Origin: Alphaproteobacteria bacterium
GTDB taxonomy: Bacteria > Pseudomonadota > Alphaproteobacteria > Rs-D84 > CASDRH01
DNA length: 32,000 bases
Assembly (NCBI GenBank): GCA_025210155.1
Contig: JAOASE010000010.1
Coordinates: 55,587-87,586 of the forward strand
Direction: 5' to 3'
Shown: in pieces, positions 2,822-30,451 of the stretch
Position numbering within the stretch: position 1 is the stretch's first letter
Layout of the letters: each line of letters starts with the position of its first letter
Notes under the pieces: model-generated
Told to the model about the DNA's origin: nothing
What the model saw: the letters and a program-made list of their open reading frames with translations, nothing else
The model's database searches: none
Program-made: the position numbers and the translations under genes

Positions 2822-2949
2822 TTAAACAAGTATTTTGTGCGAGTGGAAGCAAAAGTGCTTGAGAATTTTGGTGTCGTGTATAGATAATACTCGACTGCCA
2901 AAAGTCAAAAGTACTTTTTACAATCAATCGTGCAAAAGACGCCGTTTAA
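2822..2949 (+). repeat. Long-hairpin dispersed repeat, copy A (A/B subfamily)
   Basis: Termini attaaac...gtttaat. Central stem ggtgtcgtgtat(2870-2881)/atactcgactgcc(2887-2899), loop agata. About 80% identical by eye to copy B. Right end abuts the envZ-like stop codon (2950). Confidence 0.9.
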
Positions 2950-4290
2950 TTAGATAGGTAAAACAATCTTAACTCTCAACCCCTTCAACGAATGACCATC
3001 TTTAAGATAAATATCTCCACCATGAGCCAATACAATCTCCTTAGCAATAGCAAGTCCAAGACCTACTCCACCAGTCTTTGTATTTCTAGAAGTTTCAATT
3101 CTAGCAAATGGTTTGAACATCTCATCTCTCTTATCTTCAGGAATACCACAACCATCATCTTCAATATTAACTACAATATTATCTCTTTCTTTTCTCATCT
3201 TAACTAAAACAGTAGTATCAGCGTATCTAACAGCATTCATGATAACATTATTAAGACATCTCTTCATAGCTTCCGGTTTAAGATCAACCTTTTTATCAAG
3301 ATGAGCAAACTTACAAACAAATTTCTTATCAAAAGAATTAAATCTATCAACTACATTACCAAGAAGATCTTCTACATCAACTTTCTTAGTAGTTTCACCA
3401 CCCTCTCCTTTAGCATATTCAAGGTATTCATCAATCATTCTCTTCATATCTTCAATTTCTTCATTAAGGTTTTCTTTTAAATCTAAATCTTTAGTCTTTT
3501 GAACTTCTAAAAGCATTCTAGTCAAAGGAGTTCTCAAATCATGAGATATAGCAAATAACATTTTCATTCTATTATTAAACACTCTTGTAATTCTGCTTTG
3601 CATTTGTAAGAAAGCATTTCCTGTTCTTCTGATTTGACTAGCACCACTAGGAACAAAACCAACAACCTCTTTACCTTTACCAAAATCTTCAGTAGCTTGC
3701 GCAAGATCTTCAATAGACCTAACCTGCCCTCTTATAAACGGATAAGCTATAAGAACAGCAAATATACCACCAAAAATTATCCAAAGGAAAACAACTGCCG
3801 TAGAACTAGTAAATAACTTCTTCAAAGAAGACTCAACAACAAGCAATCCACCATTAAAATTAACTTCTGTTCTCAAATGCTTCATTTCTTCATTAGCAAT
3901 AATATTATAATTACCATCACCAAATTCTTGTCTGAAAGCTTCTTCTGCATTAGGATAATTTCTAATCAAATATGGATAAAGATTTTCCTTCTTTACAAAT
4001 TCAGTATTTGGAAAATAACTAACATCCATATCTTCTATCTCTTTAAAATAAGACTTAATCCACTCTTGGTTTCTATCTTCAAAATCTATAAAGTATTCTG
4101 CAGATTTAATAGAATTAACATAATAATTAACCAATCGTTTAGAAACTGTATCCCAGTGTCTATCATAGAATACATAACCAACAATAGTTTGTAACATAAT
4201 CATAGGAATAATCAAAGAAAGCATCGTTCTTCCCATCAATCCTTTAGGTAAAAATCTCTTAAACATATGTCCTATAAAATTCATCTTCAT
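2950..4290 (-). CDS. envZ: Two-component sensor histidine kinase, EnvZ-like
   Basis: H-box FAISHDLRTPLTRM; ATPase motifs NAVRYA, DDGCGIP, GGVGLGLAIAKEIV; two TM segments. Start set at ATG 4290 (MKMNF) behind RBS aaaggtga; the TTG at 4320 is unlikely. Confidence 0.85.
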   Translation of the reverse strand: MKMNFIGHMFKRFLPKGLMGRTMLSLIIPMIMLQTIVGYVFYDRHWDTVSKRLVNYYVNSIKSAEYFIDFEDRNQEWIKSYFKEIEDMDVSYFPNTEFVKKENLYPYLIRNYPNAEEAFRQEFGDGNYNIIANEEMKHLRTEVNFNGGLLVVESSLKKLFTSSTAVVFLWIIFGGIFAVLIAYPFIRGQVRSIEDLAQATEDFGKGKEVVGFVPSGASQIRRTGNAFLQMQSRITRVFNNRMKMLFAISHDLRTPLTRMLLEVQKTKDLDLKENLNEEIEDMKRMIDEYLEYAKGEGGETTKKVDVEDLLGNVVDRFNSFDKKFVCKFAHLDKKVDLKPEAMKRCLNNVIMNAVRYADTTVLVKMRKERDNIVVNIEDDGCGIPEDKRDEMFKPFARIETSRNTKTGGVGLGLAIAKEIVLAHGGDIYLKDGHSLKGLRVKIVLPI

Positions 4291-4350
4291 ATCATCACCT
4301 TTTCTTATTTTTAAAATCAAATTTTCTTAACTGTCATCTAACATTATATT

Positions 4351-4480
4351 TTAAACAAGTATTTTTGTTCGAGTGGAAGCGAAAATGTTTTTCAGATTTG
4401 GTATCGTGTATAAATAATACTCGATCGCCAAAGATTAAAAATATTTCTCGCAATCAATCGTACAAAAGACGCCGTTTAAA
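4351..4480 (+). repeat. Long-hairpin dispersed repeat, copy B (A/B subfamily)
   Basis: Termini ttttaaac...gtttaaaa. Central stem ggtatcgtgtat(4400-4411)/atactcgatcgcc(4417-4429), loop aaata. Lies between the ompR stop (4482) and the envZ start (4290). Confidence 0.9.
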
Positions 4481-4481
4481 A

Positions 4482-5204
4482 TTAAAAAGATATAAATTTA
4501 TATCCCTTATTTCTAACCGTCAATATAAAGTTAGGCTTCTTAGGATTTATTTCTATCTTCTTTCTTAATCTAGTAATTTGAACATCAACTGCTCTCAAAC
4601 TCTCTGATAAATTCAGTGCCTCAGCTAATTGTTCCCTAGTTAAAACTTCATCTCTATGATTTATCAAAAACGATAACAAAACCCCTTCAGAGTAAGAAAG
4701 AGATATAGCCTTATCAGCCTTAACTAACGAATTTCTTGAAAAATCAAACTCAAATTCTTCACCAAAAATATATTTATCACTATCATTATAAGACTTAGTC
4801 TCTACTCTCTTATAAACCCTAGTTAAAATATTTTTAATTCTCAAAAGAAGTTCATCTGGAGAAAACGGCTTAGCTAAATAATCATCCGCCCCAGCTTCTA
4901 AACCTTTAATTTTACTTTCCACTTCATCCAAAGCAGATAACATCAATATTGGGAAATTATAATTTTTAGATCTAAGCTCTTTAACAAGATCAAAGCCATC
5001 CATACCAGGCATCATAGCATCTAAAATCATTATATCTATAGATATTTTAGAAACAACTCTAAGGGCCTCATCCGCATCTTTAACACAAGAAACAAGATAA
5101 TCGTCATTATCCTTAATAAAAGAAGTCAATAATCCTCTAAGCTTTTCATCATCATCAACCACTAAGACATGGTATCTTTTTCTAAATCTTCTATCATTTT
5201 CCAT
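4482..5204 (-). CDS. ompR: OmpR-family response regulator
   Basis: Receiver domain (HVLVVDDD, ILDAMMPGMDG, KPF) plus winged-helix C-terminus (VQITRLRKKIE, LTVRNKGYKF). Start at ATG 5204 behind RBS gagg. Confidence 0.9.
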   Translation of the reverse strand: MENDRRFRKRYHVLVVDDDEKLRGLLTSFIKDNDDYLVSCVKDADEALRVVSKISIDIMILDAMMPGMDGFDLVKELRSKNYNFPILMLSALDEVESKIKGLEAGADDYLAKPFSPDELLLRIKNILTRVYKRVETKSYNDSDKYIFGEEFEFDFSRNSLVKADKAISLSYSEGVLLSFLINHRDEVLTREQLAEALNLSESLRAVDVQITRLRKKIEINPKKPNFILTVRNKGYKFISF

Positions 5205-5293
5205 ATTCAACCTCACTTAAAACAATTATAATACAATACCGAAAATCAATTCAAGTAAAAAAGCTATTATAATATATCTTATATATATAGTAA

Positions 5294-5319
5294 TGCCGAC
5301 CAAGAAAACAAGGTCGGCA
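5294..5319 (-). terminator. GC-rich hairpin downstream of the 5346 gene, possible terminator
   Basis: Stem tgccgacc(5294-5301)/ggtcggca(5312-5319). No clean T-run on the minus strand. Confidence 0.35.
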
Positions 5320-5345
5320 CTTCAAATAATTAGACTTTTTTCCTA

Positions 5346-6567: not shown

Positions 6568-6834
6568 CAACAAGAAATTTAAAGCAAAACCACATATTAA
6601 TTCCCAATTTTTTCAAAGAATTAAAAATAAATTGCAACAGTAGATTAAAGTTCTTATTGCAATTCCAGAACAAATCAATAAAATAAACCTTAGAGAACAA
6701 AATTTCTCAAAAATTTTTACACACATTTTACAGAAATGAAAAACTTCATAAAGCAATCTTTCCACATAACGTTTTGGATAATTTGCTTTAAAGAAAAATG
6801 TTAAAAAAAACGAATTTTACTTCTGCACTTTTTC

Positions 6835-7019
6835 CAAGTATTTTGTGCGAATGAAAGTAAAAAGTATAATATAAAAATTTTAACTCTCGGAGTTTTGGTA
6901 ATTTTGCTTCAGATAGAAGTAAAAATGATTTTTAGATAAAGTATCGCGTATAAATAATACTCGATCGCTTTAGATAAAAATTATTTCTTACGATTAGATA
7001 AGTAAAATCCCCAAAACCC
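6835..7019 (+). repeat. Long-hairpin dispersed repeat, copy C (duplicated left arm)
   Basis: Central stem aagtatcgcgtat(6939-6951)/atactcgatcgctt(6957-6970), loop aaata. Two tandem left-arm modules (6835-6890, 6900-6938). Right tail aaaatccccaaaaccc ends 23 nt before ATG 7043. Confidence 0.85.
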
Positions 7020-7042
7020 TTAATTAAAAAGAGGAATAAAAA

Positions 7043-7841: not shown

Positions 7842-8231
7842 CTAATTTTCAACTAATTCAAATCCAAAATTCTCCCCCTCTTCTAGAGAAGGACCTGGAA
7901 AGCAGTATCTAGCGATTCTTCCTTTTTTTATTTCAACCTCTCTTCCAGAAGTCAATTTAATAAAAATATCATCCGCTAAAACCTCAACGCGATCTTCAGT
8001 CCAATTTATAGGCATAAAAGATACATACAAAGGCAAATCTTCAGAAGTTTCAATTAACCCCTGAAATTCTGTTCCTTTTTCAATAATAATTGAAGCTCCA
8101 GATTCAAATTTTATTAAAAAACTTTCTTTTACAAAATCTTCTTTAATATAATCCCCAGGATTCCATTTTTCTTCGCAAGAAGGTAAAAATAAGATTTGTA
8201 ACAAAACAAAAAATACTAATAAACTTTTCAT
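7842..8231 (-). CDS. Small putative lipoprotein or secreted protein, 129 aa
   Basis: Signal peptide MKSLLVFFVLLQILFLPSC with a lipobox-like LPSC. Own promoter and terminator. Confidence 0.55.
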   Translation of the reverse strand: MKSLLVFFVLLQILFLPSCEEKWNPGDYIKEDFVKESFLIKFESGASIIIEKGTEFQGLIETSEDLPLYVSFMPINWTEDRVEVLADDIFIKLTSGREVEIKKGRIARYCFPGPSLEEGENFGFELVEN

Positions 8232-8363: not shown

Positions 8364-8440
8364 GTTTTTTGTCTAAAAAAGAAAAAATCCCAGAAAAATT
8401 TTATTTCCTGAGACTTTAAATCTTGAAGATTTGGTTACTT

Positions 8441-8536
8441 TTGACTTAGATGTTTCTGAAAATGATTTCGAAGTTTACAAATAGTAAATAAGATAATCAT
8501 TTATCAGGAACAGATATTCAAAATTCCCAAATCCCC
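8441..8536 (+). repeat. Long-hairpin dispersed repeat, copy G (shortened centre)
   Basis: Left arm ttgacttagatgtttctgaaaatgattt and right arm aatcatttatcaggaacagatattcaaaattcccaaatcc are homologous to the copy C arms. The centre is reduced to gtttac-aaata-gtaaat. Ends 7 nt before the tpiA stop. Confidence 0.6.
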
Positions 8537-8543: not shown

Positions 8544-9284
8544 CTAAGAAGCACTAGCAATAGCTAGAAATGAATCCGCCTTAAGTGACGCACCACCTAC
8601 TAGCACACCGCCAACAGAATCAATTGCTAAAATTTCTTCAGCAGTTTCTGGTTTAACAGATCCACCATAAAGAATAGCTACACCAGCATACCCCATATCT
8701 TCAGCAACCTTTGCAATAGAATCATGCATTTCTTTAACGTCCGCTGGAGTTGCAGATTTACCAGTACCAATAGCCCAAACTGGTTCATAAGCGATAACTA
8801 CAGTATCACCATTACCTGCTTTAGGTAAAGATGCTTTAACTTGTGCAGCAACTACATCTAAAGCTTTACCAGCTTCTCTATCTTCTAAAACTTCACCAAC
8901 ACAAACAATAGGAGTTAAGCCTTGTTTTAAAGCAGTATCAGCTTTTTCAGCAACTAAGGCATCAGTTTCTTTTTCATATTGTCTTCTTTCACTGTGTCCA
9001 AGAATAACAAACTCAGCACCTAACTCTTCTAACATTTCAGCTGAAACATTACCAGTATAAGCTCCAGAATCTTTAGTATGACAATCTTGTCCACCTACTT
9101 TAATTGAAGAATCTTTAGTCAATTCGCAAGCAACAGCCGTCATAGTAAATGGAGGGCAAACAACCATTTGGAATTTAGTTTCATCTAAAGATTTAACACC
9201 TTTAACCAATGCGTCTAAAAGAGCTACATCTTCCTTCAAACCGTTCATTTTCCAATTACCGGCAATCAATTTTTTATTATTCAT
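8544..9284 (-). CDS. tpiA: Triosephosphate isomerase
   Basis: 246 aa. Motifs GNWKMNG, ILGHSERR, AYEPVWAIGTG, YGGSVKP. Confidence 0.95.
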   Translation of the reverse strand: MNNKKLIAGNWKMNGLKEDVALLDALVKGVKSLDETKFQMVVCPPFTMTAVACELTKDSSIKVGGQDCHTKDSGAYTGNVSAEMLEELGAEFVILGHSERRQYEKETDALVAEKADTALKQGLTPIVCVGEVLEDREAGKALDVVAAQVKASLPKAGNGDTVVIAYEPVWAIGTGKSATPADVKEMHDSIAKVAEDMGYAGVAILYGGSVKPETAEEILAIDSVGGVLVGGASLKADSFLAIASAS

Positions 9285-10852: not shown

Positions 10853-10889
10853 CAAAAAAATAAAGCCCCTCTTCCGAAGGGCTTTTTTT
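10853..10889. terminator. Rho-independent terminator, copy 1 of a duplicated 36-37 bp block
   Basis: caaaaaaataaagcccctcttccgaagggcttttttt. Stem aaagccc/gggcttt with A-run and T-run flanks, so bidirectional. Confidence 0.8.
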
Positions 10890-11562: not shown

Positions 11563-11598
11563 CAAAAAATAAAGCCCCTCTTCCGAAGGGCTTTTTTT
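11563..11598. terminator. Rho-independent terminator, copy 2 of the duplicated block
   Basis: caaaaaataaagcccctcttccgaagggcttttttt, identical to 10853-10889 except for one A in the A-run. Terminates the ACP operon on the minus strand. Confidence 0.8.
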
Positions 11599-11618: not shown

Positions 11619-11873
11619 TTAAGCGACAACTCCATTTCTTATATCATAGATAATATTAACAAAGTCCTCTACTGTTTTAGCCTCTTCCGCAACTTCATCT
11701 GGAATAGTAATTTTAAATTTATCTTCACAGAGTTGAATAAAGTAAAGTATATCCAAACTATCTAAAGGAAGATCTTTCGTTAAATTAGCTTCCAAAACAA
11801 CTTCGTCCTCATTGATTCCATATTTATCAACGATACCAGCCTTTAAAACATTAAAAATTTCTTCTTTTGTCAT
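11619..11873 (-). CDS. Acyl carrier protein-like, orphan paralog 2
   Basis: 84 aa from ATG 11873. Carrier motif LPLDSLDILYFIQLCEDKF with the serine intact. Roughly half identical to the upstream ACP. Confidence 0.7.
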   Translation of the reverse strand: MTKEEIFNVLKAGIVDKYGINEDEVVLEANLTKDLPLDSLDILYFIQLCEDKFKITIPDEVAEEAKTVEDFVNIIYDIRNGVVA

Positions 11874-11890
11874 AATCAAAAATTTTAGGT

Positions 11891-12133
11891 TTAATTAATT
11901 ATATTATAAACTATATTTACAAAATCCTGAACTATTTCAGCTTTTTCAGCAACATCATCTGAAATATGAATATCAAACCTTTTCTCACAAAATTGAATAA
12001 ATTCAAGATGATCTAAACTATCTAAAGCCAAATCATCTACCCAGTTAGATTTTAATTCAACCTCATTTTCATGAATTCCTGCCTTATCTGCTATCTCAGA
12101 TTTTAGAACATTAAAAATTTCTTCTTTTTTCAT
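11891..12133 (-). CDS. Acyl carrier protein-like, orphan paralog 1
   Basis: 80 aa. Carrier motif LALDSLDHLEFIQFCEKRF. No fab genes adjacent. Confidence 0.7.
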   Translation of the reverse strand: MKKEEIFNVLKSEIADKAGIHENEVELKSNWVDDLALDSLDHLEFIQFCEKRFDIHISDDVAEKAEIVQDFVNIVYNIIN

Positions 12134-14833: not shown

Positions 14834-14909
14834 GGCCAGGTAGCTCAGTTGGTAGAGCAAAGGACTGAAAATCCTTGTGTCGGCGGTTCGATCCCGCCCT
14901 TGGCCACCA
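14834..14909 (+). tRNA. tRNA-Phe (anticodon GAA), CCA encoded
   Basis: 76 nt cloverleaf: acceptor ggccagg/cttggcc, D-arm gctc-agttggta-gagc, anticodon loop ctGAAaa, T-arm ggcgg-ttcgatc-ccgcc, discriminator A plus CCA. Confidence 0.95.
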
Positions 14910-19260: not shown

Positions 19261-19286
19261 TCATATTTTGATTTAAATCAAAATAA

Positions 19287-19445
19287 TTAAACAAGTATTT
19301 TAATCGAGTGGATAAAAAAATGATTTAAATTTTTTATAGTTTGCTTTAGATGGAAGTAAAAGTGCTTAGAAATTTGGGTGTCGTGTATATATAATACTCG
19401 ACTGCCCAAAGTTTTAAGTGCTTCTTACAATCAGATGAAGTAAAA
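19287..19445 (+). repeat. Long-hairpin dispersed repeat, copy D (duplicated left arm)
   Basis: Central stem gggtgtcgtgtat(19376-19388)/atactcgactgccc(19394-19407), loop atata. Left end ttaaacaagtatttt as in A and B. Right arm cttcttacaatcagatgaagtaaaa ends 9 nt before the addA stop. Confidence 0.9.
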
Positions 19446-19454
19446 TATACAAAT

Positions 19455-22400
19455 TTATACGAAATAGAACGACAAATCCGACAAATACAACAAAGCAGAA
19501 TAAACCTTACAATCAGGATAAACCTCAGCAACTAACTTCTTATAAGTCCTTAACTGAACCTTATACTTAGACGAAATATCTTCAAAAGACTTAGGCGGAA
19601 CTTCATCAGTCTTAAAATCAACTATGAATACAGAATTCCCGCGCTTAACTAGCTTATCTAAACGAACTAAACCACCTTCGTAAGCCAACGTAAGCTCAGA
19701 CGTAGCAAAATCATTATCAAACAATATTCTAAACCTATCATCTTCATAAAGATTCATAACATTATTCAAAAACTTCTCTCTAACATCATCAGAAAACAAA
19801 TCAGAGTAAGACTTCAAGAACTCATCAAAAGTCTTCTTAACCTTCTCAGCATCCAACGGCTTCATTCTCTCAACATATTCCATCATCTTATGAACTACAA
19901 TACCACGTTTCAATGGTAGCTCAGAACTATTCACAAAATCCTCATCCAATATAGATACCGCCTGCTTCTCAGAAACTTCCTCAGCAAAAATATCTTCTTG
20001 CTCTAATTCAATAGCTCCTTCAACAACTCTCAAATCAACAGCTTCTCTAACTATATCCACATCTTCAACAATAGCATCTTCTACGGTTTCTACTTCTACC
20101 TTACCACCGCAAACCTTTTCAGAAAATTCTTCAGCACCTAAAGCAACAATCCTCTTAATCTTACCACCATCATCTAATTCTTCAACAGAAACACTAGCAT
20201 AAGAATCCATAGCAATATTCATCTTATCATACCAATCATTCTTCTCAAAACCAAATACAAGAAGCTTTTCCCTAGCTCTAGTCATTGCAACATATAACAA
20301 TCTATTAAGCTCTTCGCCCTCTTTCTCTTTCTTCAATTCCTTAAGCTCAGAATAAAGCATCGAACCATTAGCTCCAACAAAAGAAAATGGATGTTTTAAA
20401 ACAGGTATCTTATAAGACGAATGAGAAAACTCCTCTTCATTAGTATCTGCAAAGTAAATATCTACTTTACCACCGCCACCACCAGAACTATCAGCAAACA
20501 CAGCTGGTATAATAACTACTGGAGCCTCTAAACCTTTAGATCCATGACAAGTCATAATCTTAACACCAGAAACAGAAGAAGATGAAAGATCTCTCTTAAC
20601 ATTATTATTAGACTTCTTAACCCAATCCAAGAAACCAACAATACCCAAATAATGATACGTAGAATTTTCAAACTCCAAACAAAGCTTAATAAACTCATCA
20701 GCGAAATCTTCAAACTCTCCACCAAGTCTCTTATAGAACTCTATATCTACCATCAACTCACCAAGAATAAATGAAAAGAAATCATAAGGAGACACTCCAT
20801 CTTCAAACATTTCAAAACACTTATCCAAAATCAAATAAGCTCTATCAAACTTCTGACTATTACAATCCCTATCATCATATTCTTCATTATAAGTTTTCAT
20901 TTCAGGAGTAAAAAGTCCATCCATATCACCAACATTCTTCCCTGAAAAATATCTTTCCTTCAAACACTCGTAAATAGATTTATTCTCTCTACCATAAGCC
21001 AACTTAAACACATCATCTTCATCAAAACCGAATATAGGCGACTTCAATACCGACGCAAGTAACAAATCATCTTCCTTAACCATAAGAAATTCTAATAACC
21101 CAAGCATATCATCAAATGCTATATAGTTATTAAGACTTAACTGATCAGCTCCAGCCACTTCTATATTTCTTTTAAACAATTCTCTAATAAGCAAGTTACT
21201 AAAATCATTTCTCTTTCTAACAAGCACCATAAAGTCTGAAGCAGAAACATACTTCTTCTTAGTCCCCAACCAAACCTTATCTTTAATCATCTTATCTATC
21301 TGATCTGCAACCTGTATAGCGACTTTCTTCAACGGAGAATCTTTCTCAGTAACTTCATATGGCATTTCCCATTCAGCCTCTAAAGCCTTCTTTCTATCTA
21401 CCTTCTCAGCATCCTTAGACAATGGAGGGAATATAACAACTTCCCCAGCCTTATCTGAATTCACAGAAATATGAGCCACTCCCTTTTCATTAATACTTCC
21501 ATCTTTCTCAAGTAAATCTTCAGCCTCTACAACTCCAACCTTACCCTCTGAATTCTCTAACACAGCATTAACAATCTCAAGCACGGGAGGAGATGTTCTA
21601 AACGAAACATTCTTAGATATTTCCTGCCACTTCCCAGCATCATATCTATTAACAACCCTATCTCTCAATTTCTTTCTAAACATATTAAAGTGATGTATAT
21701 CCGCACCTTGGAAAGAATAAATAGATTGCTTCTTATCTCCCACTACAAACACAGACTTAGCATCAAACTCTCCCTTACCTTCTCCAAAAAACTCTTCAGT
21801 AAGAGAATTAATAATATCCCATAGGAATGGCGAAGTATCTTGAGACTCATCGACAAGCAAATGATCTATACCACCGTCCAACTTATAAAGCACCCAACCT
21901 GCAAAACTCGGATTAGAAAACAACTTGTTCACAAGGTCAAGCATATCATCAAAATCCATAGCCCCCTTAAGCGTCTTCTCCATTTGGAACACTCTAATAA
22001 ACTCATATGCAAAACAACATACAGCATAAGTATATTCTAAATCATCAAAAGCAGAAAGATCATACATAAGCTTATGAACTCTCTCCCCCTCTTTCATTAA
22101 AAAGTCTATGAAATGAGGAAACTCAGTATCCATCTTCTTATTAATCAAATAAGCCTTACTCTTAACCTTACTAAAATCAGAAGTTAAAAACGCACTAGCA
22201 TATTCTTCTAAATAAGCCTTTTGACTTCTTCTTCCCTCAACATCATTCTCAAAAGAATACATCTTCTTCATCTTCTGAACATTACCAAACGCCCTAGCCC
22301 CAGCATCCTTCTGACCATACTCATCAACCGTAGCAACAAATTCTTTCAAAACATTAATGAAAGGTCTCTCATCTAAAAACTTCTTCCAAACTTCATCCTT

Positions 22401-23356: not shown

Positions 23357-23848
23357 ATGACAAAAAAGAGACAAAGGCGACAGCTTTTAGCTAAACTTGA
23401 TATAGGAAATATTTATAAATCTAATACTCAACTTTTCTGGAAAAAAGGGCTATTAGAGGAAACTGAATTTTCAATTCTTAAAATATATGAACTCAAAAAA
23501 ATTCATAAAATATACCTATTAAGAGAAGTAAGTACACAAAACTTATTTATATTCTCAAAAAATATAAAAAACAGTCATAACTTTATAAATTTAAACATTA
23601 GTGACGAAAAAATGATTATAGGATTTAACCTAGGTCACTTTAATAAAAACCATAAAAATAAAATTTTTTATATAGATCTAATCTTTGACGAAAGACAAAG
23701 CATTAACCCTATAGGAAATTTAAGTTATCTAAAATTTATATTCCGAGAAAACAGTCTACAATTTACCTTACAAGAAAAAGGTGAAATTAAAAGATGTTCC
23801 AAGGAAAAACTTGATATATATCAAGCCAAAGAAATTAGTATATCCTAA
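23357..23848 (+). CDS. Hypothetical protein, 163 aa, basic N-terminus (MTKKRQRRQ)
   Basis: ORF with its own promoter and terminator. No recognised domain. Confidence 0.5.
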   Translation: MTKKRQRRQLLAKLDIGNIYKSNTQLFWKKGLLEETEFSILKIYELKKIHKIYLLREVSTQNLFIFSKNIKNSHNFINLNISDEKMIIGFNLGHFNKNHKNKIFYIDLIFDERQSINPIGNLSYLKFIFRENSLQFTLQEKGEIKRCSKEKLDIYQAKEISIS

Positions 23849-23851
23849 ATA

Positions 23852-23881
23852 AAGTCTGTGGAGAAATCCGCAGGCTTTTTG
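23852..23881 (+). terminator. Rho-independent terminator
   Basis: agtctgtgg(23853-23861)/ccgcaggct(23868-23876) with two G:U pairs valid on the plus strand, then tttt. Confidence 0.65.
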
Positions 23882-23884
23882 CAT

Positions 23885-23913
23885 AAAAAAAGGTCGACTA
23901 TAAAAGTCGACCC
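23885..23913 (-). terminator. Rho-independent terminator of the 23947 gene
   Basis: Minus strand: ggtcgac-ttttata-gtcgacc followed by ttttttt. Confidence 0.8.
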
Positions 23914-23946
23914 GTACAAACAAAATTTTCATTATATATATTGCAT

Positions 23947-24345
23947 TTAAGCAACCGAAGCATTAGCACCGATCATACAATAAAATACTTCAGCAAGCGT
24001 CTTAAAATCCTCAGACAAAGCACTTTCCAATTCAAGTTCTTTTAAAAGTTTACCCTTATCGAGAGACGGAGCTATCTCAGAAAGTTGCTTCTCAAACAAT
24101 ATTGTCTGATAACTTTCCGGCAATTCCATAAAAACATCAATGGAAGAGCCTCCATTATGTTTAAGCTTTTCTAAAGAATTATCGATTTTTAAAATGTCCT
24201 TAACAGAACATTCTTTCTCTTCAATAGCAATCGCATTATCTAAATAATGGGCTGCCTTATCAACACTTGTAACTTTAATTATTCCGAAGAAAGTCGTTAC
24301 TAATTCATTAACTTTTTCTGCTTGCTCTTTTTGAAATTTCTTCAT
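23947..24345 (-). CDS. Hypothetical helical protein, 132 aa
   Basis: ORF with its own promoter and terminator. Weak similarity to the neighbouring 24517 gene product (FEKQLSEI versus FETKLSEM). Confidence 0.5.
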   Translation of the reverse strand: MKKFQKEQAEKVNELVTTFFGIIKVTSVDKAAHYLDNAIAIEEKECSVKDILKIDNSLEKLKHNGGSSIDVFMELPESYQTILFEKQLSEIAPSLDKGKLLKELELESALSEDFKTLAEVFYCMIGANASVA

Positions 24346-24410
24346 TTTAAAAATTTTAATCAGGTTTAAATCAATTACTTATAGTTTAAATTTGCTTATT
24401 TAGCCCTAGC

Positions 24411-24438
24411 AATATAACAAGTAATTTTTATTTTTCAA
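24411..24438 (-). promoter_or_regulatory. Sigma70-like promoter for the 23947 gene
   Basis: Minus strand: TTGAAA (24438-24433), 16-nt spacer, TATATT (24416-24411). Confidence 0.5.
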
Positions 24439-24460
24439 GAGGTAAAATGCATTTTTTCTA

Positions 24461-24497
24461 AAAAAAATAAAAAAGGAGGCAAATTTCTCTGCCTCCC
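24461..24497 (-). terminator. Rho-independent terminator of the 24517 gene
   Basis: Minus strand: ggaggca-gagaaatt-tgcctcc followed by a long T-run. Confidence 0.85.
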
Positions 24498-24516
24498 TCA
24501 ATAGTATGGATCTAAT

Positions 24517-24948
24517 CTAAACAGCCTTTGCTGCTTTTTTCCTTTTAGCTTTCTTCGGTTTCTTTTGTGCATTAATAAATCTCACATAATCACCCAAAGT
24601 ATTTAACTCAGCTTCCGGAGCATCTTGAGGAACCCCGAGTTCTTCCCTGAACTTTTCAATCAGCAAAGAAGAGTTTTTCATCTCCGATAACTTAGTCTCA
24701 AAGAAAGAATAAAAATACATCCCTGATAACTGCTTAAAAAATGCAAACATAGCATCTCCCCGATCTTTCACGTTTTGATAAATACTAGCAACATGATCAT
24801 GAAGGTTTTCATTATCCTTCTTATTTTCCCTTTTTAGATTAACCTTAATTAATAAAGGTAAATTTTCAACAGCAACAACTTGTTCGTTATTATTTAAAAA
24901 TGCCTTTAAGACATTCTGAACTGTTTCACTCTTTAAAATATCATACAT
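24517..24948 (-). CDS. Hypothetical helical protein, 143 aa, with a Lys-rich C-terminal tail (KKPKKAKRKKAAKAV)
   Basis: Start moved to ATG 24948 (MYDILKSE) because the longer ORF overlaps its own predicted promoter. Confidence 0.5.
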   Translation of the reverse strand: MYDILKSETVQNVLKAFLNNNEQVVAVENLPLLIKVNLKRENKKDNENLHDHVASIYQNVKDRGDAMFAFFKQLSGMYFYSFFETKLSEMKNSSLLIEKFREELGVPQDAPEAELNTLGDYVRFINAQKKPKKAKRKKAAKAV

Positions 24949-24987
24949 ATGTATTCTGTTATTAGGTTTAAAAACATTATCAATACA

Positions 24988-25015
24988 AAGATAACCAAAC
25001 AAATAATTTTATCAA
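24988..25015 (-). promoter_or_regulatory. Candidate promoter for the 24517 gene
   Basis: Minus strand: TTGATA (25015-25010), 16-nt spacer, TATCTT (24993-24988). Confidence 0.4.
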
Positions 25016-25055
25016 GAAAAAAAGAAATCTAATTAATATCCAATAGAAAAACATC

Positions 25056-25083
25056 TTGATTTCCAAAACAATTTGTTTATATT
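25056..25083 (+). promoter_or_regulatory. Sigma70-like promoter of parE
   Basis: TTGATT 25056-25061, 16-nt spacer, TATATT 25078-25083. Implies a leader of roughly 185 nt containing repeat copy F. Confidence 0.45.
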
Positions 25084-25140
25084 AAAAGTTAGAAAAAGGA
25101 AAAATCATACATAAAACATCTTAAAAACATCAACTATTTA

Positions 25141-25253
25141 TAGTGAGTAAAAGTGTTTTGTTATAAATTGTTTAGATGCGAAGGAAAAAGGTTCCGACGC
25201 GTATAAACAAATACGTGAGGGTTCTTTTTTCAAAGCAGATGAATGATTTAGGA
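25141..25253 (+). repeat. Long-hairpin dispersed repeat, divergent copy F, in the parE leader
   Basis: Family blocks gtgagtaaaagtgtttt, tttagatgcgaagg and caaagcagatgaatgattt. Central stem cgcgtat(25198-25204)/atacgtg(25211-25217), plus an outer stem gaaaaaggttcc/gggttctttttt. Confidence 0.45.
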
Positions 25254-25273
25254 CGAAACGGAGAATTATAAAC

Positions 25274-27235
25274 ATGAGCAATCTAACAGGGAATAAAGAC
25301 TACTCAGCCAAAGACATAAAAGTTCTAGAAGGACTAGAGCCTGTTCGTTTAAGACCAGGTATGTATATTGGTGGAAGTGACGAAAAAGCTATGCACCATT
25401 TAATAGCTGAAATCCTTGATAACTCAGTAGACGAAGCTGTTGCCGGATATGCCACAGACATTAAAATTGATCTACTTCCTGGAAACAAAATCATAATAAG
25501 AGATAACGGTAGAGGTATCCCATGCGACCCTCACCCTAAATACCCTGGAAAATCTGCACTTGAAGTAATCTTAACGTCACTTCACTCAGGTGGTAAATTC
25601 GAAGGCGGAGCATATAAAACATCTGGTGGTCTACACGGTGTAGGTATCTCAGTAGTTAACGCCCTTTCATCTCAAATGGAAGTTAAAGTTTACAAAAACG
25701 GAACTATTTTCGAACAAAAATTCTCAAGAGGACTTTGTCTAGGTCCAGTAGAAGAAATCGGTGAAACAAGATCTAAAGGAACAGAAGTTATGTTTGTTCC
25801 AGACACTGAAATCTTCGGCGAAAAAACAAGATTTAGAACACAAAAAATATTCAAATATGTAAGATCAAAAGCATTCTTATTCAAAGGTCTAAAAATCACT
25901 TTAAACATAGACCCTACTTTGATTACAGACGACATGGGAATAGAACCAACAACTACATTCCACTTCCCAGAAGGTATCAAAGAATTCTTACAAGACTCAG
26001 TTAAAAATAAAACTATAGTAAGCAACATGATCTTCGCAGGTGAAGCTCCTCTAGCCAACGACAAAGGTAAAGTAGAGTGGGCATCTCTATGGATAGAACC
26101 AGAAACTTATGAAAAAAGCGGTTTCACACTTTCATACTGTAATACAGTTCCAACTGTAGAAGGTGGTACTCACGAAGCTGGTTACAGATCTGCTGTACTA
26201 AAATCATTAAAACAATTCGGTGAAATGATCAACAACAAAAAAGCTGCTCAAATCACTGCTGACGACATCTTCGGAGAAGCTGGAGTAATTATATCTATAT
26301 TCTATAAAAACCCAGAATTCCAAGGTCAAACAAAAGAAAAATTCTCAAGTTCAGACGCGAACAAACTTACTGAAAACGCAGTAAGAGACTATTTCGACCA
26401 CTTCCTAATCGAAAACAAAGATCAAGCAATCACGTTACTTGACTTCATAGTAGAAAGAAGTGAAGAAAGACTTAAATCTCGTAAAGCAAAAGAAACTACT
26501 AGAAAATCTGCAACTAAAAAAATCAGATTACCAGGTAAACTAACTGACTGCTCAAAGAAAAACTCAGAAGATACAGAACTATTCCTAGTAGAGGGAGACT
26601 CTGCGGGAGGTTCAGCAAAACAAGGTAGAGATAGAGAAACTCAAGCAATCTTACCTCTTAAAGGTAAAATCCTAAACGTTGCTTCAGCATCTACTGACAA
26701 AATATTTGCTAACAAAGAAATTCAAGACATGGTAGAAGCTCTAGGTTGCGGAATGGGTAAAGACTATGACGAAAGCAAACTTAGATACGAAAGATTAGTA
26801 ATCATGACCGATGCCGACGTTGACGGTTCTCACATCGCAACATTACTAATGACTTTCTTCTATAAAGAAATGCCACAACTAATAGAAAACGGACACCTAT
26901 TCCTAGCATGCCCTCCTCTATTCAAGGTACATAACAAATCAAAATCTTTCTACTGCTTCACAGAAGAAGAAAAAGATCAAGTTATAGAAAAAGAATTCAA
27001 AGGCGTAAAACCAATGGTAAACCGTTTCAAAGGATTAGGTGAAATGAACCCTTCTCAATTGAAAGAAACTACTATGGATAAGAAAACTAGAATTCTTCTA
27101 AGAGTAGGATTACCTGACTTCGTTGAAGAGATAGAAGAAACAAAAACTCTAGTTGAACACTTAATGGGTAAAGAAGCAAAACACCGTTTCAAATTCATTC
27201 AAGAAAACGCCAGCTTCGTAGAAGTAGATGTATAA
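25274..27235 (+). CDS. parE: DNA topoisomerase IV subunit B
   Basis: 653 aa type IIA B subunit: LEGLEPVRLRPGMYIGG, GLHGVG, Toprim EGDSAGG and IMTDADVDGSHI. Its length and the lack of the long GyrB insertion favour ParE over GyrB. Confidence 0.85.
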   Translation: MSNLTGNKDYSAKDIKVLEGLEPVRLRPGMYIGGSDEKAMHHLIAEILDNSVDEAVAGYATDIKIDLLPGNKIIIRDNGRGIPCDPHPKYPGKSALEVILTSLHSGGKFEGGAYKTSGGLHGVGISVVNALSSQMEVKVYKNGTIFEQKFSRGLCLGPVEEIGETRSKGTEVMFVPDTEIFGEKTRFRTQKIFKYVRSKAFLFKGLKITLNIDPTLITDDMGIEPTTTFHFPEGIKEFLQDSVKNKTIVSNMIFAGEAPLANDKGKVEWASLWIEPETYEKSGFTLSYCNTVPTVEGGTHEAGYRSAVLKSLKQFGEMINNKKAAQITADDIFGEAGVIISIFYKNPEFQGQTKEKFSSSDANKLTENAVRDYFDHFLIENKDQAITLLDFIVERSEERLKSRKAKETTRKSATKKIRLPGKLTDCSKKNSEDTELFLVEGDSAGGSAKQGRDRETQAILPLKGKILNVASASTDKIFANKEIQDMVEALGCGMGKDYDESKLRYERLVIMTDADVDGSHIATLLMTFFYKEMPQLIENGHLFLACPPLFKVHNKSKSFYCFTEEEKDQVIEKEFKGVKPMVNRFKGLGEMNPSQLKETTMDKKTRILLRVGLPDFVEEIEETKTLVEHLMGKEAKHRFKFIQENASFVEVDV

Positions 27236-27242
27236 CAATTTC

Positions 27243-27270
27243 AAAGCTCCCTAACCGGAGCTTTTTTTTC
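27243..27270 (+). terminator. Rho-independent terminator of parE
   Basis: agctcc/ggagct stem followed by an 8-nt T-run. Confidence 0.8.
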
Positions 27271-27271
27271 A

Positions 27272-27301
27272 TTGACAATCACAATAGATCATTGCTAGTA
27301 T
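27272..27301 (+). promoter_or_regulatory. Sigma70-like promoter, copy 1 of a duplicated block
   Basis: TTGACA 27272-27277, 18-nt spacer, TAGTAT 27296-27301. The block 27262-27309 recurs at 27804-27852 with three substitutions. Confidence 0.6.
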
Positions 27302-27351
27302 TTTTTCATATAAATAATTTACTGTTACTAACCATTTTTAAACAAATTATT

Positions 27352-27783: not shown

Positions 27784-27784
27784 A

Positions 27785-27812
27785 AAGAGGTGTCTAACAC
27801 TTCTTTTTTTTT
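27785..27812 (+). terminator. Rho-independent terminator
   Basis: aagaggtg/cacttctt stem (one G:U pair) followed by a 9-nt T-run. Confidence 0.7.
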
Positions 27813-27814
27813 CA

Positions 27815-27844
27815 TTGACAACCACAATCAATCATTGCTAGTAT
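27815..27844 (+). promoter_or_regulatory. Sigma70-like promoter, copy 2 of the duplicated block
   Basis: TTGACA 27815-27820, 18-nt spacer, TAGTAT 27839-27844. Confidence 0.6.
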
Positions 27845-27883
27845 TTTTTCATCAAAACGTTAAACCTAAAAATCCATTATATT

Positions 27884-28285: not shown

Positions 28286-28290
28286 ATTAA

Positions 28291-28328
28291 AGAAAGGAAA
28301 GTCTAAAATGATTTTCCTTTTTTTATTT
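28291..28328 (+). terminator. Weak AT-rich terminator hairpin
   Basis: aaaggaaa(28293-28300)/tttccttt(28313-28320) followed by a T-run. Confidence 0.45.
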
Positions 28329-28342
28329 CACATTTTTTATTC

Positions 28343-28371
28343 TTGACAAAGTATATTTTAACGAATAATAT
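28343..28371 (+). promoter_or_regulatory. Sigma70-like promoter
   Basis: TTGACA 28343-28348, 17-nt spacer, TAATAT 28366-28371. Confidence 0.55.
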
Positions 28372-28395
28372 ATTTACATACTAAAAATTAAAATC

Positions 28396-28755: not shown

Positions 28756-28763
28756 CAAAACAC

Positions 28764-28800
28764 AATCCCGACACCACCTATAATTGTCGGGATTTTTTTA
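28764..28800 (+). terminator. Rho-independent terminator
   Basis: atcccgaca/tgtcgggat stem followed by ttttttt. Confidence 0.8.
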
Positions 28801-28829
28801 TTGACTCCCCTTCTTCAAATGGTAATATT
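28801..28829 (+). promoter_or_regulatory. Sigma70-like promoter
   Basis: TTGACT 28801-28806, 16-17 nt spacer, TAATAT or AATATT 28823-28829. Confidence 0.5.
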
Positions 28830-28856
28830 TTCCCAAACTAAAAATTTAAATCAAAT

Positions 28857-29321
28857 ATGTACACAGAAAACAACATTACTGAAGAAGTAACAAAAAAACT
28901 CCTTCCAGATGAGTTAGAAAAAGTCCTAAATTTTCTCAATGAAAAAGGATATAGAGCTGAATTTATCACTCCATTCATTGAAGAATTATTTAGAGACGAA
29001 AATGTATGGACCTTAAGAATCCAAAATATCCATATATTAAAAAGAGAAAGCTTTAAAATTTCTGACCTAAAAGATTTAGACGGAATAAAACCAGAGTTAT
29101 GCTCTGAAAAAAATTTCAGAGATGAAGGAACTGGAATATTCAACATTTTACCTTTAACTAAAAAAGATGAAGTATTAGAATTAGTCCCAAGTTTTAAAAA
29201 AGAATTCTATAAAACTAAAAATCTAATAGGACTGCACTTCCCTGCAGAAGTGAAATATTTTAGAACAGAAAATTTCTTCATTTTCGATCGTCAATTACCT
29301 AAAAAAATGATTGACAATTAG
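28857..29321 (+). CDS. Hypothetical protein, 154 aa
   Basis: ORF with its own promoter. No similarity noticed to the three upstream small proteins. Confidence 0.5.
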   Translation: MYTENNITEEVTKKLLPDELEKVLNFLNEKGYRAEFITPFIEELFRDENVWTLRIQNIHILKRESFKISDLKDLDGIKPELCSEKNFRDEGTGIFNILPLTKKDEVLELVPSFKKEFYKTKNLIGLHFPAEVKYFRTENFFIFDRQLPKKMIDN

Positions 29322-29386
29322 GAATAAAAATATATTATTCTCAATAGTAAATTTTTATTTATAAAGGTCTCAAAAAACAAAAAAAT

Positions 29387-29411
29387 GGTATTCAACGGAA
29401 TGCCTTTTTTT
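29387..29411. terminator. Bidirectional terminator
   Basis: ggtattc/gaatgcc stem (one G:U pair), A-run before and T-run after. Confidence 0.65.
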
Positions 29412-29581
29412 ATACCCAAACACTTGAATCAACAATTCAAAAACGAATCACAAACAATTGAAAAGACTCCTTCTTTTTTAAAAGAAATAATTCTCCTAAT
29501 AATACCATAAAAAAATCATTCAACAAAAATACTATTTTAATATTTTTGTTTTTTAACCCTATATTTAATCCCAATGTTTTT

Positions 29582-29692
29582 CATAGTTTGCATTAGATGG
29601 AAGTAAAAAAGCATTTTAGATAAGTTATTGTGTATATACAATACTCAATCGACTTAGATAAAATGCTTTTCTTACAATCAGATGATGTGAAA
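29582..29692 (+). repeat. Long-hairpin dispersed repeat, copy E (single left arm)
   Basis: Central stem aagttattgtgtat(29622-29635)/atactcaatcgactt(29641-29655), loop ataca. Outer stem aaaagcatttta/taaaatgctttt is a perfect 12 bp. Ends 12 nt before the lptB stop. Confidence 0.9.
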
Positions 29693-29704
29693 TATGGGAA
29701 ACTT

Positions 29705-30451
29705 TTAATTATCGAAAGAGTCTCCCAAATAAACCCTCTTAACATCCTCATTATTAATAATATCTTCCTTAGAACCTTCGATAAGAATCTTACCATCATA
29801 GACAACATAAGCCTTATCAGTAATATCTAAAGTCTCACGCACATTATGATCCGTAATAAGAACACCAATACCCTTATCCTTAAGATGATAAATTAAATCT
29901 TTAATATCATTTACCGCGATAGGATCTACACCTGCAAATGGCTCATCGAATAATACAAACTTAGGATCCGCAGCCAAAGCACGAGCAATCTCTACTCTAC
30001 GTCTTTCACCACCAGACAATGCCATAGCTGGAGAATTTTCAATATGAGAAATATGAAATTCTTCAATAAGCTCTCTCAATTTCTTTTCTCTCTTTTCTTC
30101 ATCAGCTTCAATAAGCTCAAGAACACCCATAATGTTTTCTCTAACAGTTAAATTTCTGAAGATAGACATTTCCTGAGGCAAATAACCTAACCCCATTCTA
30201 GCACGCTTATAAAAAGGATATTCTATAACATCTTCACTAGAAATACTCACGTTTCCAGCATCTGGTCTAACCAATCCTGTAATACAATAAAATGATGTAG
30301 TCTTACCAGCTCCATTAGGACCTAACAATCCAACAACTTCACCAGTAGATACTTCCATCGAAATCCCTTTAAGAATCGATCTAGCACCATAACTTTTCTT
30401 AATATTCTCAATAACTAACTTTTCCCTAGCCTGAGAATTTTTCTTAACCAT
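29705..30451 (-). CDS. lptB: LPS export ABC transporter ATP-binding protein LptB
   Basis: Walker [10 protein letters not shown], signature [15 protein letters not shown], Walker [14 protein letters not shown]. Located downstream of lptC-lptA. Confidence 0.9.

Follow-up and report, generated by a model that had tools for sequence, protein, structure and literature searches.

Why should every copy of a repeated hairpin in one stretch of chromosome read in the same direction and end at the edge of a gene? This question is raised by the window, the whole 32,000-nt stretch analysed here, for which a preliminary description had noted seven co-oriented copies and proposed orientation-specific insertion or selection as the cause. 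The hairpin repeats, of about 110-170 nt, look like a previously undescribed family with unusually strict polarity. The host is a small, AT-rich, uncultured alphaproteobacterium.

Copies, orientation and subfamilies

A covariance model built from the copies and run with filters off on both strands of the window recovers exactly seven copies (Table 1). All seven are on the plus strand, as first described, and the reverse-strand matches at these sites score 60-80 bits below the plus-strand matches. Two additional copies, H and I, are located on flanking contigs of the same organism, so that nine of nine copies are co-oriented in approximately 45 kb (two-sided P ~0.004). No family member in the opposite orientation came up in an unbiased scan for long hairpins. 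The Logan assemblies of this organism are interrupted within A, B and I, which is the behaviour expected of multi-copy repeats.

Table 1. Hairpin elements and terminators in the window and the flanking contigs
Feature	Position	Strand	Score (bits)	Remarks
Copy A	2822-2949	+	112	Type 1
Copy B	4351-4479	+	116.5	Type 1; ompR-envZ spacer
Copy C	6833-6860, then 6889-7022	+	114	Type-1-like left end, then type-2 hairpin
Copy G	8428-8536	+	65	Divergent subfamily
Copy D	19286-19311, then 19326-19457	+	120	Type-1-like left end, then type-2 hairpin
Copy F	25154-25260	+	51	Divergent subfamily
Copy E	29576-29708	+	110	Type 2
Copy H	L001 6406-6534	as window copies		Flanking contig, 6 kb right of the window
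Copy I, right half	L006 1-56	as window copies		Flanking contig, 4.6 kb left of the window
Terminator	2743-2766	both		Canonical, GC-rich, bidirectional, intrinsic; left of A, which lies between it and envZ
Terminator	29387-29404	both		Bidirectional; left of E
Terminator-like site	8417-8384	-		Follows G
Further terminators	10855-10889, 11564-11598			Canonical

The copies can be divided into type 1 (A, B and H, with the termini TTAAAC...GTTTAA), type 2 (C, D and E) and further F-type and G-type elements. The copies are mosaics with respect to outer arms, inner hairpins and tails: copy I has its inner hairpin in common with F and its tail in common with E. The outer arms of G correspond, at nearly every position, to the arms of an element that lies downstream of aroK in another relative (L013), while the inner hairpins of the two are not shared.

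Hairpin structure and the folding strand

Each copy is in essence a single long hairpin with imperfect pairing, its left end base-paired to its right end. Conserved features are the outer arms, an A·A internal loop and an AGAU/AGAU internal loop (possibly a tandem G·A). The middle helix varies, and the apex carries a small stem-loop, GUAY-RAAUA-RUAC. In the alignment, 94.5% of cells are paired and double (compensatory) changes occur in 20 of 35 pairs; shuffling gives 9.0±2.0 such pairs (0/500), and slid controls give 3-7. The hairpin structure is under selection.

The two strands are not equivalent. An unbiased arm-versus-arm alignment contains 45 G·T and 6 A·C pairs, favouring the plus strand, and this wobble excess runs counter to the local composition: the GC skew of the elements on the plus strand is +0.17, while that of third codon positions is -0.5 to -0.6. 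The plus strand also folds 4-26 kcal/mol better than the minus strand in most copies, against a background trend that favours the minus strand. Predicted energies on plus and minus are -47 and -35 kcal/mol for A, -47 and -25 kcal/mol for D, and -44.5 (z -6) and -20 kcal/mol for F, for which further folds give -43 to -29 kcal/mol on plus and -17 to -13 kcal/mol on minus. In an unbiased hairpin scan, the elements are the only places at which plus folds much better than minus. These data show that the strand required to fold is the plus strand, the same chromosomal strand in all readable copies.

Right ends and gene boundaries

The names assigned earlier to the neighbouring genes envZ, ompR, tpiA, addA, parE and lptB are confirmed by NCBIfam. 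The right ends of A and I lie 0 nt from the stop codons of envZ (2950-2952) and aroK, respectively, that of B lies 2 nt from the ompR stop (4482-4484), and that of G 7-10 nt from the tpiA stop (8544-8546). The terminal TTTA of D overlaps the addA stop (19455-19457), the terminal TTTTAA of E overlaps the lptB stop (29705-29707), and in H the stop codon is contained in the terminal TTAA. Copy C stops 20 nt short of the ATG (7043) of an alpha/beta hydrolase gene, just 5' of the Shine-Dalgarno sequence, and F stops 13 nt short of the parE ATG (25274) and is directly followed by the Shine-Dalgarno sequence GGAG. The right end is therefore found at a minus-strand stop codon (overlap to ~10 nt) in seven of the nine copies and before a plus-strand ATG in two. 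The left ends are 60-380 nt away from the left-hand gene, facing open spacer as in the preliminary description. Of the right-end distances given there, those of A (0 nt), G (7 nt) and C (about 20-23 nt) broadly hold, that of B is 2 rather than 1 nt, and those of D (9 nt), E (12 nt) and F (about 20-23 nt) are replaced by the two overlaps and by 13 nt.

Assuming uniform placement in each spacer, multiplication of the seven one-sided probabilities for the right ends gives ~4e-12. Read on the minus strand, 10 of 13 elements begin 0-2 nt after TAA or TAG, with boundaries partly set by eye. These positions show that the right end adjoins TAA or TAG, mostly the stop codon of a convergent gene, an arrangement that resembles insertion next to a short fixed target.

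Terminators, promoters and transcript context

Ordinary terminators are used in this genome, and the hairpin elements are something different. An assignment of the elements as intrinsic (rho-independent) terminators was rejected, because their stems are 35-55 bp long and AT-rich, have sequence in common and lack a free U tract behind them; among the window copies, only part of F is flagged as a terminator. Where a minus-strand gene carries no element, its stop codon is immediately followed by a canonical terminator.

A promoter-like site, TTAGCA-17-TATAAT (2787-2815), precedes A and would start transcription at the first bases of the element. Such sites are found 37 times with 34 expected, i.e., at chance level in AT-rich DNA, and no conserved promoter is present upstream of the copies, whose left flanks are unrelated. 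C and F must be transcribed on the plus strand within mRNA leaders, because no space remains for a promoter. In searches against Rfam 15 no element matches a family at gathering score and only tRNA-Phe reaches the threshold; the sub-threshold matches on the elements are generic microRNA-precursor hairpins.

Empty and occupied sites in relatives

In the sister lineage SRR13663708, parE is 89% identical to that of the window at the nucleotide level. Copy A is absent from the orthologous site (L014), where the envZ spacer measures 56 nt instead of 210 nt. Copy B is absent from the same contig: the ompR-envZ spacer lacks a family hairpin and consists of 162 nt of unrelated sequence, compared with 191 nt in the window, so that the site is not cleanly empty. 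A and B are therefore polymorphic in presence and absence among related genomes, a hallmark of MITEs, and at least these two copies are dispensable, as they are missing in a close relative. At both empty sites, a single TTAA abuts or overlaps the stop codon. The empty A spacer contains three TTAA in total and, by our own reading, the empty B spacer more. Since TTAA and TAA are common in AT-rich spacers, the target sequence alone does not explain the stop-proximal choice.

The C, F and G sites of the sister lineage hold different family variants, as does the aroK site (I) in a further relative. At the C site, there is a different, single type-1-like element with the same left boundary; at the F site (L008), the flanks and outer arms are kept and the inner hairpin cannot be aligned. 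Overall, four of six examined orthologous sites are occupied in both lineages, in the same orientation. The comparison shows that new copies arise in this lineage, with A and B specific to it, and that occupied sites are overwritten by other family members, yielding mosaics. The sites occupied in both lineages also fit fixed functional elements. No similar DNA was found in plasmids or phages.

Origin and possible function of the elements

We favour, with moderate confidence, the view that these hairpins, 110-170 nt in length, form a lineage-specific family of mobile but non-autonomous elements of REP/REPIN or MITE type. The comparison of orthologous sites supports the proposal that the elements are, or recently were, mobile. 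Insertion or copying would proceed via a single-stranded, strand-specific intermediate, beside a target containing TAA or TAG. For type 1, this target would be TTAA: it occurs at the two ends and at the two empty sites, and it overlaps the stop codon in H. A target-site duplication is arguable for type 1 only, in which terminal inverted repeat and duplication are inseparable because TTAA is palindromic; the other subfamilies show none. Such targeting would set the orientation and put the element end at stop codons, and purifying selection would then clear insertions that harm terminators, promoters or ribosome-binding sites. The mobilising enzyme would be encoded elsewhere in the genome: the search for an HUH/Y1 (RAYT-like) enzyme suggested earlier yielded no HUH/Y1, RAYT or other transposase gene in the ~45 kb read, out of a genome no smaller than 1.05 Mb. 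After insertion, the reverse complement of the element would form part of the minus-strand gene's 3' UTR or intercistronic RNA, where its hairpin may have a secondary effect like that of an E. coli REP close to a stop codon. The initial proposal of orientation-specific insertion or selection agrees with mobility, variant swapping, a special strand and the TAA/TAG-adjacent right end, but nine copies in one replichore cannot separate mechanism from selection.

Compensatory evolution and wobble bias on the plus strand would equally fit a family of functional structured RNAs made from this strand, in which duplication and gene conversion give the multi-copy mosaics; we consider this possible, though rather unlikely. 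C and F would then be 5'-UTR elements just 5' of the hydrolase and parE Shine-Dalgarno sequences, consistent with their necessary transcription on the plus strand, and the other copies would be small RNAs, cis-antisense RNAs or insulators that stop rightward (antisense, head-on) transcription entering the 3' end of the minus-strand gene. The strong covariation, the wobble pairs lying nearly all on plus, the much better folding of plus despite a background favouring minus, and internal and apical loops that are conserved while helices vary all argue for such RNAs, as do the four orthologous sites occupied in the same orientation and the good promoter-like site before A. They are difficult to reconcile with the unrelated left flanks and missing conserved promoter, the chance-level number of promoter-like matches, hairpins without a following terminator, the absence of A and B from a close relative and the lack of an Rfam match, and abutment of a stop codon at 0-2 nt has no obvious role for a plus-strand RNA.

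The seven copies 0-10 nt downstream of a minus-strand stop suggest instead an action on minus-strand mRNAs, whose 3' ends the reverse-complement hairpin would shield from exonucleases, placed between the stop and the true terminator (A, D, E and G) or between cistrons (B, H and I); co-orientation would follow from the minus-strand bias of the local genes. The terminators further downstream of A, G and E would place the element inside a 3' UTR, and element-less minus-strand genes have their canonical terminator directly after the stop. Since the hairpin begins within ~15 nt of the stop, it might also damp translation of the upstream gene: many E. coli REPs sit within 15 nt of a stop codon (PMC12306157), and REPs in this position are reported to stall ribosomes and lower expression, according to work cited in PMC12306157. 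This role is nevertheless distinctly unlikely, as the preserved folding strand is plus and not the mRNA strand (G·T 45:6), F does not fold on minus, C and F show the opposite relation, being sense to their neighbour and in its 5' UTR, and A and B are dispensable in the relative. Co-orientation could also reflect survivorship at the DNA level, if hairpins extruding on the lagging-strand template are cleaved or deleted and those folding on the leading-strand template persist; the same pressure would favour C·A mismatches that weaken the minus-strand hairpin. The orientation of attC arrays in chromosomal integrons has been explained along similar lines. Third-position GC skews of -0.51 and -0.63 for genes on either strand mark plus, by the usual rule and within one replichore, as the lagging-strand sequence and hence the leading-strand template, and plus is the better-folding strand in the copies. 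Survivorship, a very improbable reading, is based on one replichore and an inferred fork direction, and leaves both the abutment of right ends on stop or start codons and the upkeep of the hairpin by compensatory changes unexplained.

Comparison with known systems

The elements share traits with several known systems. Like integron attC sites, they are imperfect palindromes conserved in structure over sequence, with one folded strand active, and each of the co-oriented copies starts at the preceding gene's stop codon or overlaps it. An attC identity was rejected, as the termini TTAAAC/GTTTAA are unlike RYYYAAC/GTTRRRY and the neighbours are scattered housekeeping genes rather than a cassette array; no integrase or attI was found near the elements.

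IS200/IS605 elements (IS608, ISDra2 and miniatures) show a comparable strand-specific biology and a short fixed sequence directly at one side only, here TAA/TAG, and in both cases a link between orientation and replication direction is expected. They insert directly 3' of a fixed tetra- or pentanucleotide (TTAC for IS608) without target duplication, their active strand lies on the lagging-strand template, and orientation flips at ori and ter. In the present elements, the better-folding strand is on the leading-strand template, as judged from GC skew, the opposite of this rule. If minus is regarded as the 'top' strand, the elements agree with both the target side and the lagging-template rule, yet the preserved folding strand is plus. 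IS200/IS605-derived miniatures, which lack terminal inverted repeats and carry two separate, directly oriented subterminal hairpins, were rejected because the ends pair here, and no Y1 transposase is seen in the ~45 kb read. The build of the elements departs from the IS200/IS605 and RAYT-REP systems named initially as examples: each element is one long hairpin, neither two subterminal hairpins nor two self-palindromic REPs.

Palindromic MITEs (Correia/NEMIS, ERIC/IRU, RUP and Rickettsia RPE) are likewise 100-170 nt long, give hairpin-forming transcripts, are intergenic in transcribed regions and vary in presence between close lineages, and the TTAA at both ends of type 1 is like a target duplication. 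There is no sequence similarity to them and no Rfam match. RPEs occur in reduced alphaproteobacterial genomes and often lie in frame inside genes, which the present elements never do in the DNA read. To our knowledge, none of these families is uniformly oriented or abuts stop codons so tightly.

REPIN-RAYT systems comprise a single-copy RAYT gene (Y1 HUH, PF01797) flanked by REPs in the same genome. The present elements differ from REPINs in that they share no sequence similarity, have no RAYT in the ~45 kb read, and have arms that on inspection are not short palindromes and show no GTAG-type motif. They are also strictly co-oriented with strand-asymmetric wobble, and we know of no report of co-oriented REPINs. 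As in the REPs and REPINs of Pseudomonas and Enterobacteria, the copies are extragenic, multi-copy, single long hairpins of ~100 nt that form within-genome populations with subfamilies. Within subfamilies their inverted ends are conserved, and these pair with each other around a middle part that varies, much as REPINs have conserved ends and a spacer that shows compensatory changes and is limited solely by its length and the need to form a hairpin (PMC3116915).

Family membership and orientation

The hairpin elements belong to one repeat family whose copies all read in the same direction. Repeat finding recovered five similar copies in the window, and alignment of the seven regions named in the preliminary description showed that the copies next to tpiA and parE share the architecture and little of the sequence. 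A covariance model (R1) was built from the copies and searched against both strands with filters off. Within the window it matched seven places and no more, each on the plus strand at 51-120 bits; the mirror matches on the minus strand were 60-80 bits weaker. The seven co-oriented copies described earlier were thus borne out, and two more copies from the same organism have the same orientation: H in flanking DNA to the right, and I to the left, represented by its right half because the contig breaks inside the element. Co-orientation therefore extends to 9/9 copies, all on one replichore (two-sided P ~0.004). Long hairpins were also scanned for without regard to sequence; no family member in the opposite orientation emerged, and the strongest minus-strand hairpins were ordinary terminators.

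Elements of the repeat family and other features of the region (window positions unless a Logan contig is named)
Feature	Position	Subfamily	Right end or remark
A	2822-2949	type 1	0 nt from envZ stop
B	4351-4479	type 1	2 nt from ompR stop
C	6833-7022	type 2	20 nt before hydrolase ATG
G	8428-8536	G type	7-10 nt from tpiA stop
D	19286-19457	type 2	overlapping addA stop
F	25154-25260	F type	13 nt before parE ATG
E	29576-29708	type 2	overlapping lptB stop
H	L001, 6406-6534	type 1	stop of convergent 796-aa gene inside terminal TTAA
I	L006, 1-56		0 nt from aroK stop
Empty A site	L014, 3581-3636		56-nt envZ 3' spacer of SRR13663708
262-aa ORFan gene	1234-2022
129-aa ORFan gene	7842-8231
35-nt terminators	10855-10889; 11564-11598		AAAAAATAAAGCCCCTCTTCCGAAGGGCTTTTTTT
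Acyl-carrier-protein-like genes	11619-11879; 11891-12133		PF00550
ftsZ	12743-14677		644-aa product
Internal repeats of ftsZ	12972-13189
tRNA-Phe (GAA)	14834-14909		plus strand
53-nt repeat	27262-27314; 27805-27857

Hairpin architecture

Every copy is one long imperfect hairpin, with 94.5% of cells paired in the seven-sequence alignment. Two-sided changes occur in 20 of 35 pairs; shuffling the columns gave 9.0±2.0 such pairs (0/500), and sliding the partner gave 3-7. Folding with more flank pairs the 'tail' with sequence left of the core, indicating that the whole element, end to end, is the hairpin; its energy on the plus strand is -34 to -47 kcal/mol (z = -6 for F). Conservation extends to an outer helix and a long helix whose sequence varies, to an A·A loop and the apical stem-loop GUAY-RAAUA-RUAC, and to a symmetric internal loop that sets UAGAUG against CAGAUGA (AGAU opposed to AGAU, perhaps as tandem G·A). 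Type-1 elements have the termini TTAAAC...GTTTAA, and the 5' extension that the type-2 copies C and D carry resembles the type-1 left end; the F and G types form further subfamilies.

Identification of the hairpins as intrinsic terminators was rejected, as their stems are 35-55 bp long and AT-rich, share sequence and have no free U tract after them; of the window copies, a terminator search flagged only part of F. A mini-ORF (MLENFGVVYR-like, in A, B and D) was likewise discarded: in C, E and H it is truncated or has no start codon. A promoter-like motif within the elements, TTnAGA-16/18-nATAAT, is present in A-E; such matches occur at chance density, and a start at this motif would leave out the 5' arm, whose pairing is conserved.

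The folded strand

RNA folding favors the plus strand by 4-26 kcal/mol in most copies and is about equal for G. When the left arm was aligned to the reverse complement of the right arm under wobble-blind scoring, the transition mismatches comprised 45 G·T on the plus strand versus 6 A·C on the plus strand (equivalent to G·T on the minus strand), and the lean toward plus-strand G·T was seen in all elements (12/12). The background is opposite: the G+T-rich minus strand folds better almost everywhere else, leaving the elements as the only clear exceptions. Their GC skew is +0.17, against -0.27 in neighboring spacers. Strand-biased C-to-T pressure of the usual kind, acting on the leading strand, would place wobbles on the minus strand instead of the plus strand. 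Thus, the wobble bias, which runs against background folding, skew and C-to-T pressure, shows that the plus strand, as RNA or single-stranded DNA, is the strand whose folding is preserved.

Position of the element ends

The right ends lie at gene boundaries, as the preliminary description had claimed, with small corrections to its distances for E and F; on the left, the copies stop 60-380 nt short of the next gene. Under random placement within each spacer, the joint probability for the seven window copies is ~4e-12. Since TTAA is frequent in spacers, the choice of stop-proximal sites needs a further targeting cue or selection, and nine copies on one replichore are compatible with either.

Turnover in related lineages

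Cluster look-ups led to proteins of two close relatives, SRR13663708 and DRR671587, with short Logan contigs. A and B are both missing from the sister lineage SRR13663708, in which the spacer from envZ to the gene for a 203-aa protein is 56 nt long versus 210 nt in the window, and no family hairpin occurs in its ompR-envZ spacer. At both empty sites, TTAA abuts or overlaps the stop codon. The empty A site contains a short terminator hairpin (GATTAAACAAGGCCCCTGAAAAGAGGCCTTGTTTTTTATTTAA) that starts with GATTAAACAAGG, the same 11 nt as the type-1 left end, and its ends resemble type-1 termini; this hairpin could represent a minimal or ancestral version, the remnant of a deletion or a coincidence.

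Occupied sites differ in content. At the parE site of SRR13663708, where the parE DNA is 89% identical to the window, the flanks are kept together with the outer arms (TTTGTTATAAA ... TGATTTAGGACGAAACGGAG), and ~75 nt of inner hairpin are unalignable. Its tpiA site holds an element with the outer arms of the F subfamily, not of the window's G. The hydrolase site has the same left boundary in both lineages, with a single type-1-like element in SRR13663708 versus, in the window, a type-2 hairpin preceded by a type-1 left end. At aroK, DRR671587 has an element of the G type that lies 1 nt away from the stop, and the window strain has a copy with an inner hairpin matching F and a tail matching E. 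ParE relatives at 64-67% identity have neither a spacer nor an element upstream of parE. Lineage-specific copy gain, recombination or overwriting at occupied sites, subfamilies and TIR-like ends are together the behavior of a non-autonomous mobile repeat.

Between near-identical strains (contigs 99.4-99.9% identical) the elements do not vary. As expected of multi-copy repeats, the organism's Logan contigs break inside A, B and I. Comparison of the window with contig L011 (SRR21418661) revealed 74 of 75 SNPs within 23.5-27.2 kb and no indels; this cluster (23500-27200) has the look of a tract exchanged by recombination among strains that occur together, and copy F, which lies inside it, is unchanged. 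In SRR13663708, the two ORFan genes of 262 and 129 aa are uncalled at the orthologous places (contigs L014 and L012), the 203-aa gene directly follows rho, and the tpiA-hydrolase spacer measures 443 nt versus 871 nt in the window.

Source organism and searches for relatives

NCBIfam models identify rho, envZ, ompR, tpiA, ftsZ, ruvB, an alphaproteobacterial-type addA, parE, lptB and an lptA-like gene; about half of the window ORFs have no Pfam or NCBIfam match. EnvZ has a 100% identical counterpart in an NCBI 'MAG: Alphaproteobacteria bacterium', and its next homologue is at only 39%; ParE relatives are found at 95% identity, then at 67% and below, and window proteins are also encoded on a 1,048,500-bp contig. 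The organism is therefore a small-genome, deep-branching, uncultured alphaproteobacterium. It is probably host-associated.

G+C content is ~31% in the window, and the plus strand shows strongly negative GC skew. In plus-strand letters, third-codon-position skew is -0.51 in plus-strand genes and -0.63 in minus-strand genes, so that it tracks the chromosome strand rather than transcription. The usual skew rule makes the plus strand lagging-strand sequence and has the fork run from right to left, with most genes; the tRNA-Phe gene is head-on to this direction. The replication-associated skew is very strong, and as a result minus-strand RNA folds better than plus-strand RNA almost everywhere in the window.

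The ftsZ product is unusually long, with the FtsZ model covering residues 26-338 only, and the short internal repeats lie in the DNA for its C-terminal extension. The two identical bidirectional terminators are 709 nt apart and enclose a 189-aa ORFan gene, and the acyl-carrier-protein-like genes are tandem paralogues (72% DNA identity over 250 nt). The 53-nt repeat (91% identity) holds a strong promoter-like site, TTGACA-18-TAGTAT; each copy lies after a terminator and before a small ORFan gene, in a region with four co-directional ORFans in a row.

Rfam searches at gathering and E-value thresholds returned only the tRNA-Phe and generic hairpin noise. An exact-pattern scan with the apical core GTRTCGYGTANNNNNAATACTCGAYYRC gave 0 matches in the genome contig and metagenome contig collections, indicating that neither contains the organism. 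Scans with two subfamily tails returned single matches in unrelated taxa (11 for ARTGATTTAGGACGAAAC, 18 for ATATTCAAAATTCCCAAAT), which were taken as chance, as 0 coincide with a covariance model match. Plasmid and phage collections contain no similar DNA, and ~45 kb of readable DNA contain no gene for a mobilizing enzyme. As far as exact-pattern scans can tell, the family appears restricted to this lineage.

Alternative explanations

A family of structured RNAs transcribed from the plus strand would account for the covariation and the wobble bias, and for C and F as 5'-UTR elements, but it leaves unexplained the unrelated left flanks, the missing conserved promoters and terminators, the fact that the relative does without A and B at no loss, and the 0-2 nt abutment to stop codons. 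A 3'-UTR or intercistronic hairpin acting on minus-strand mRNAs would be similar to those E. coli REPs that lie no more than 15 nt from a stop codon (PMC12306157). Such a role fits the position of 7/9 copies and the terminators located beyond A, E and G; however, the mRNA would then have the weaker-folding strand, and C and F are reversed relative to their neighbor genes. An effect on minus-strand mRNAs may be a secondary consequence of the insertions. Survivorship at the DNA level, through selection against hairpins on the lagging-strand template, could yield the orientation but fails to yield the placement.

Comparison with known repeat systems

Interspersed palindromic repeats such as REP, REPIN, MITE and RPE are common, and how they move and become fixed in position is poorly understood. 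The pattern in the window is real and statistically strong, and its source is a previously undescribed hairpin repeat family, classed here with the REP/REPIN/MITE kind. This family joins testable features, namely strict co-orientation, a strand-asymmetric wobble pattern from which the folded strand can be told, ends at stop codons, lineage-specific insertions and the swapping of modules at conserved sites. It also shows how much spacer DNA of a reduced alphaproteobacterium can derive from repeats, and it carries a warning for annotation, because its hairpins break short-read assemblies.

Co-orientation, wobble and the position against TAA/TAG suggest that copying would include a strand-specific, probably single-stranded, step and would be aimed, on one side, at a short sequence resembling a stop codon, which for type 1 is TTAA. 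A bolder and rather improbable reading is a new strand-locked hairpin transposon or 'cassette' that would copy itself via a folded single strand, target stop codons (TAA/TAG, TTAA) in one orientation relative to the fork and replace resident copies. It would be an attC-like or REPIN-like replicator of housekeeping-gene 3' ends in a reduced alphaproteobacterial genome, served by an enzyme other than a known RAYT (the transposase of REP/REPIN elements) or IS200 transposase.

For the hairpin repeat family itself, the earlier idea of orientation-specific mobilization finds partial support in the strand-specific features. Membership in IS200/IS605, the single-strand transposons, fails on architecture. 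The polarity of that comparison is also ambiguous: an active minus strand would agree with the target side and with the lagging-template rule, yet the plus strand is kept foldable. In REPINs the ends are conserved, and pairing is the sole constraint on the variable middle, where compensatory changes occur (PMC3116915); the family in the window has the same architecture. Its strict co-orientation, strand-specific wobble signature and position against TAA/TAG go beyond known families.
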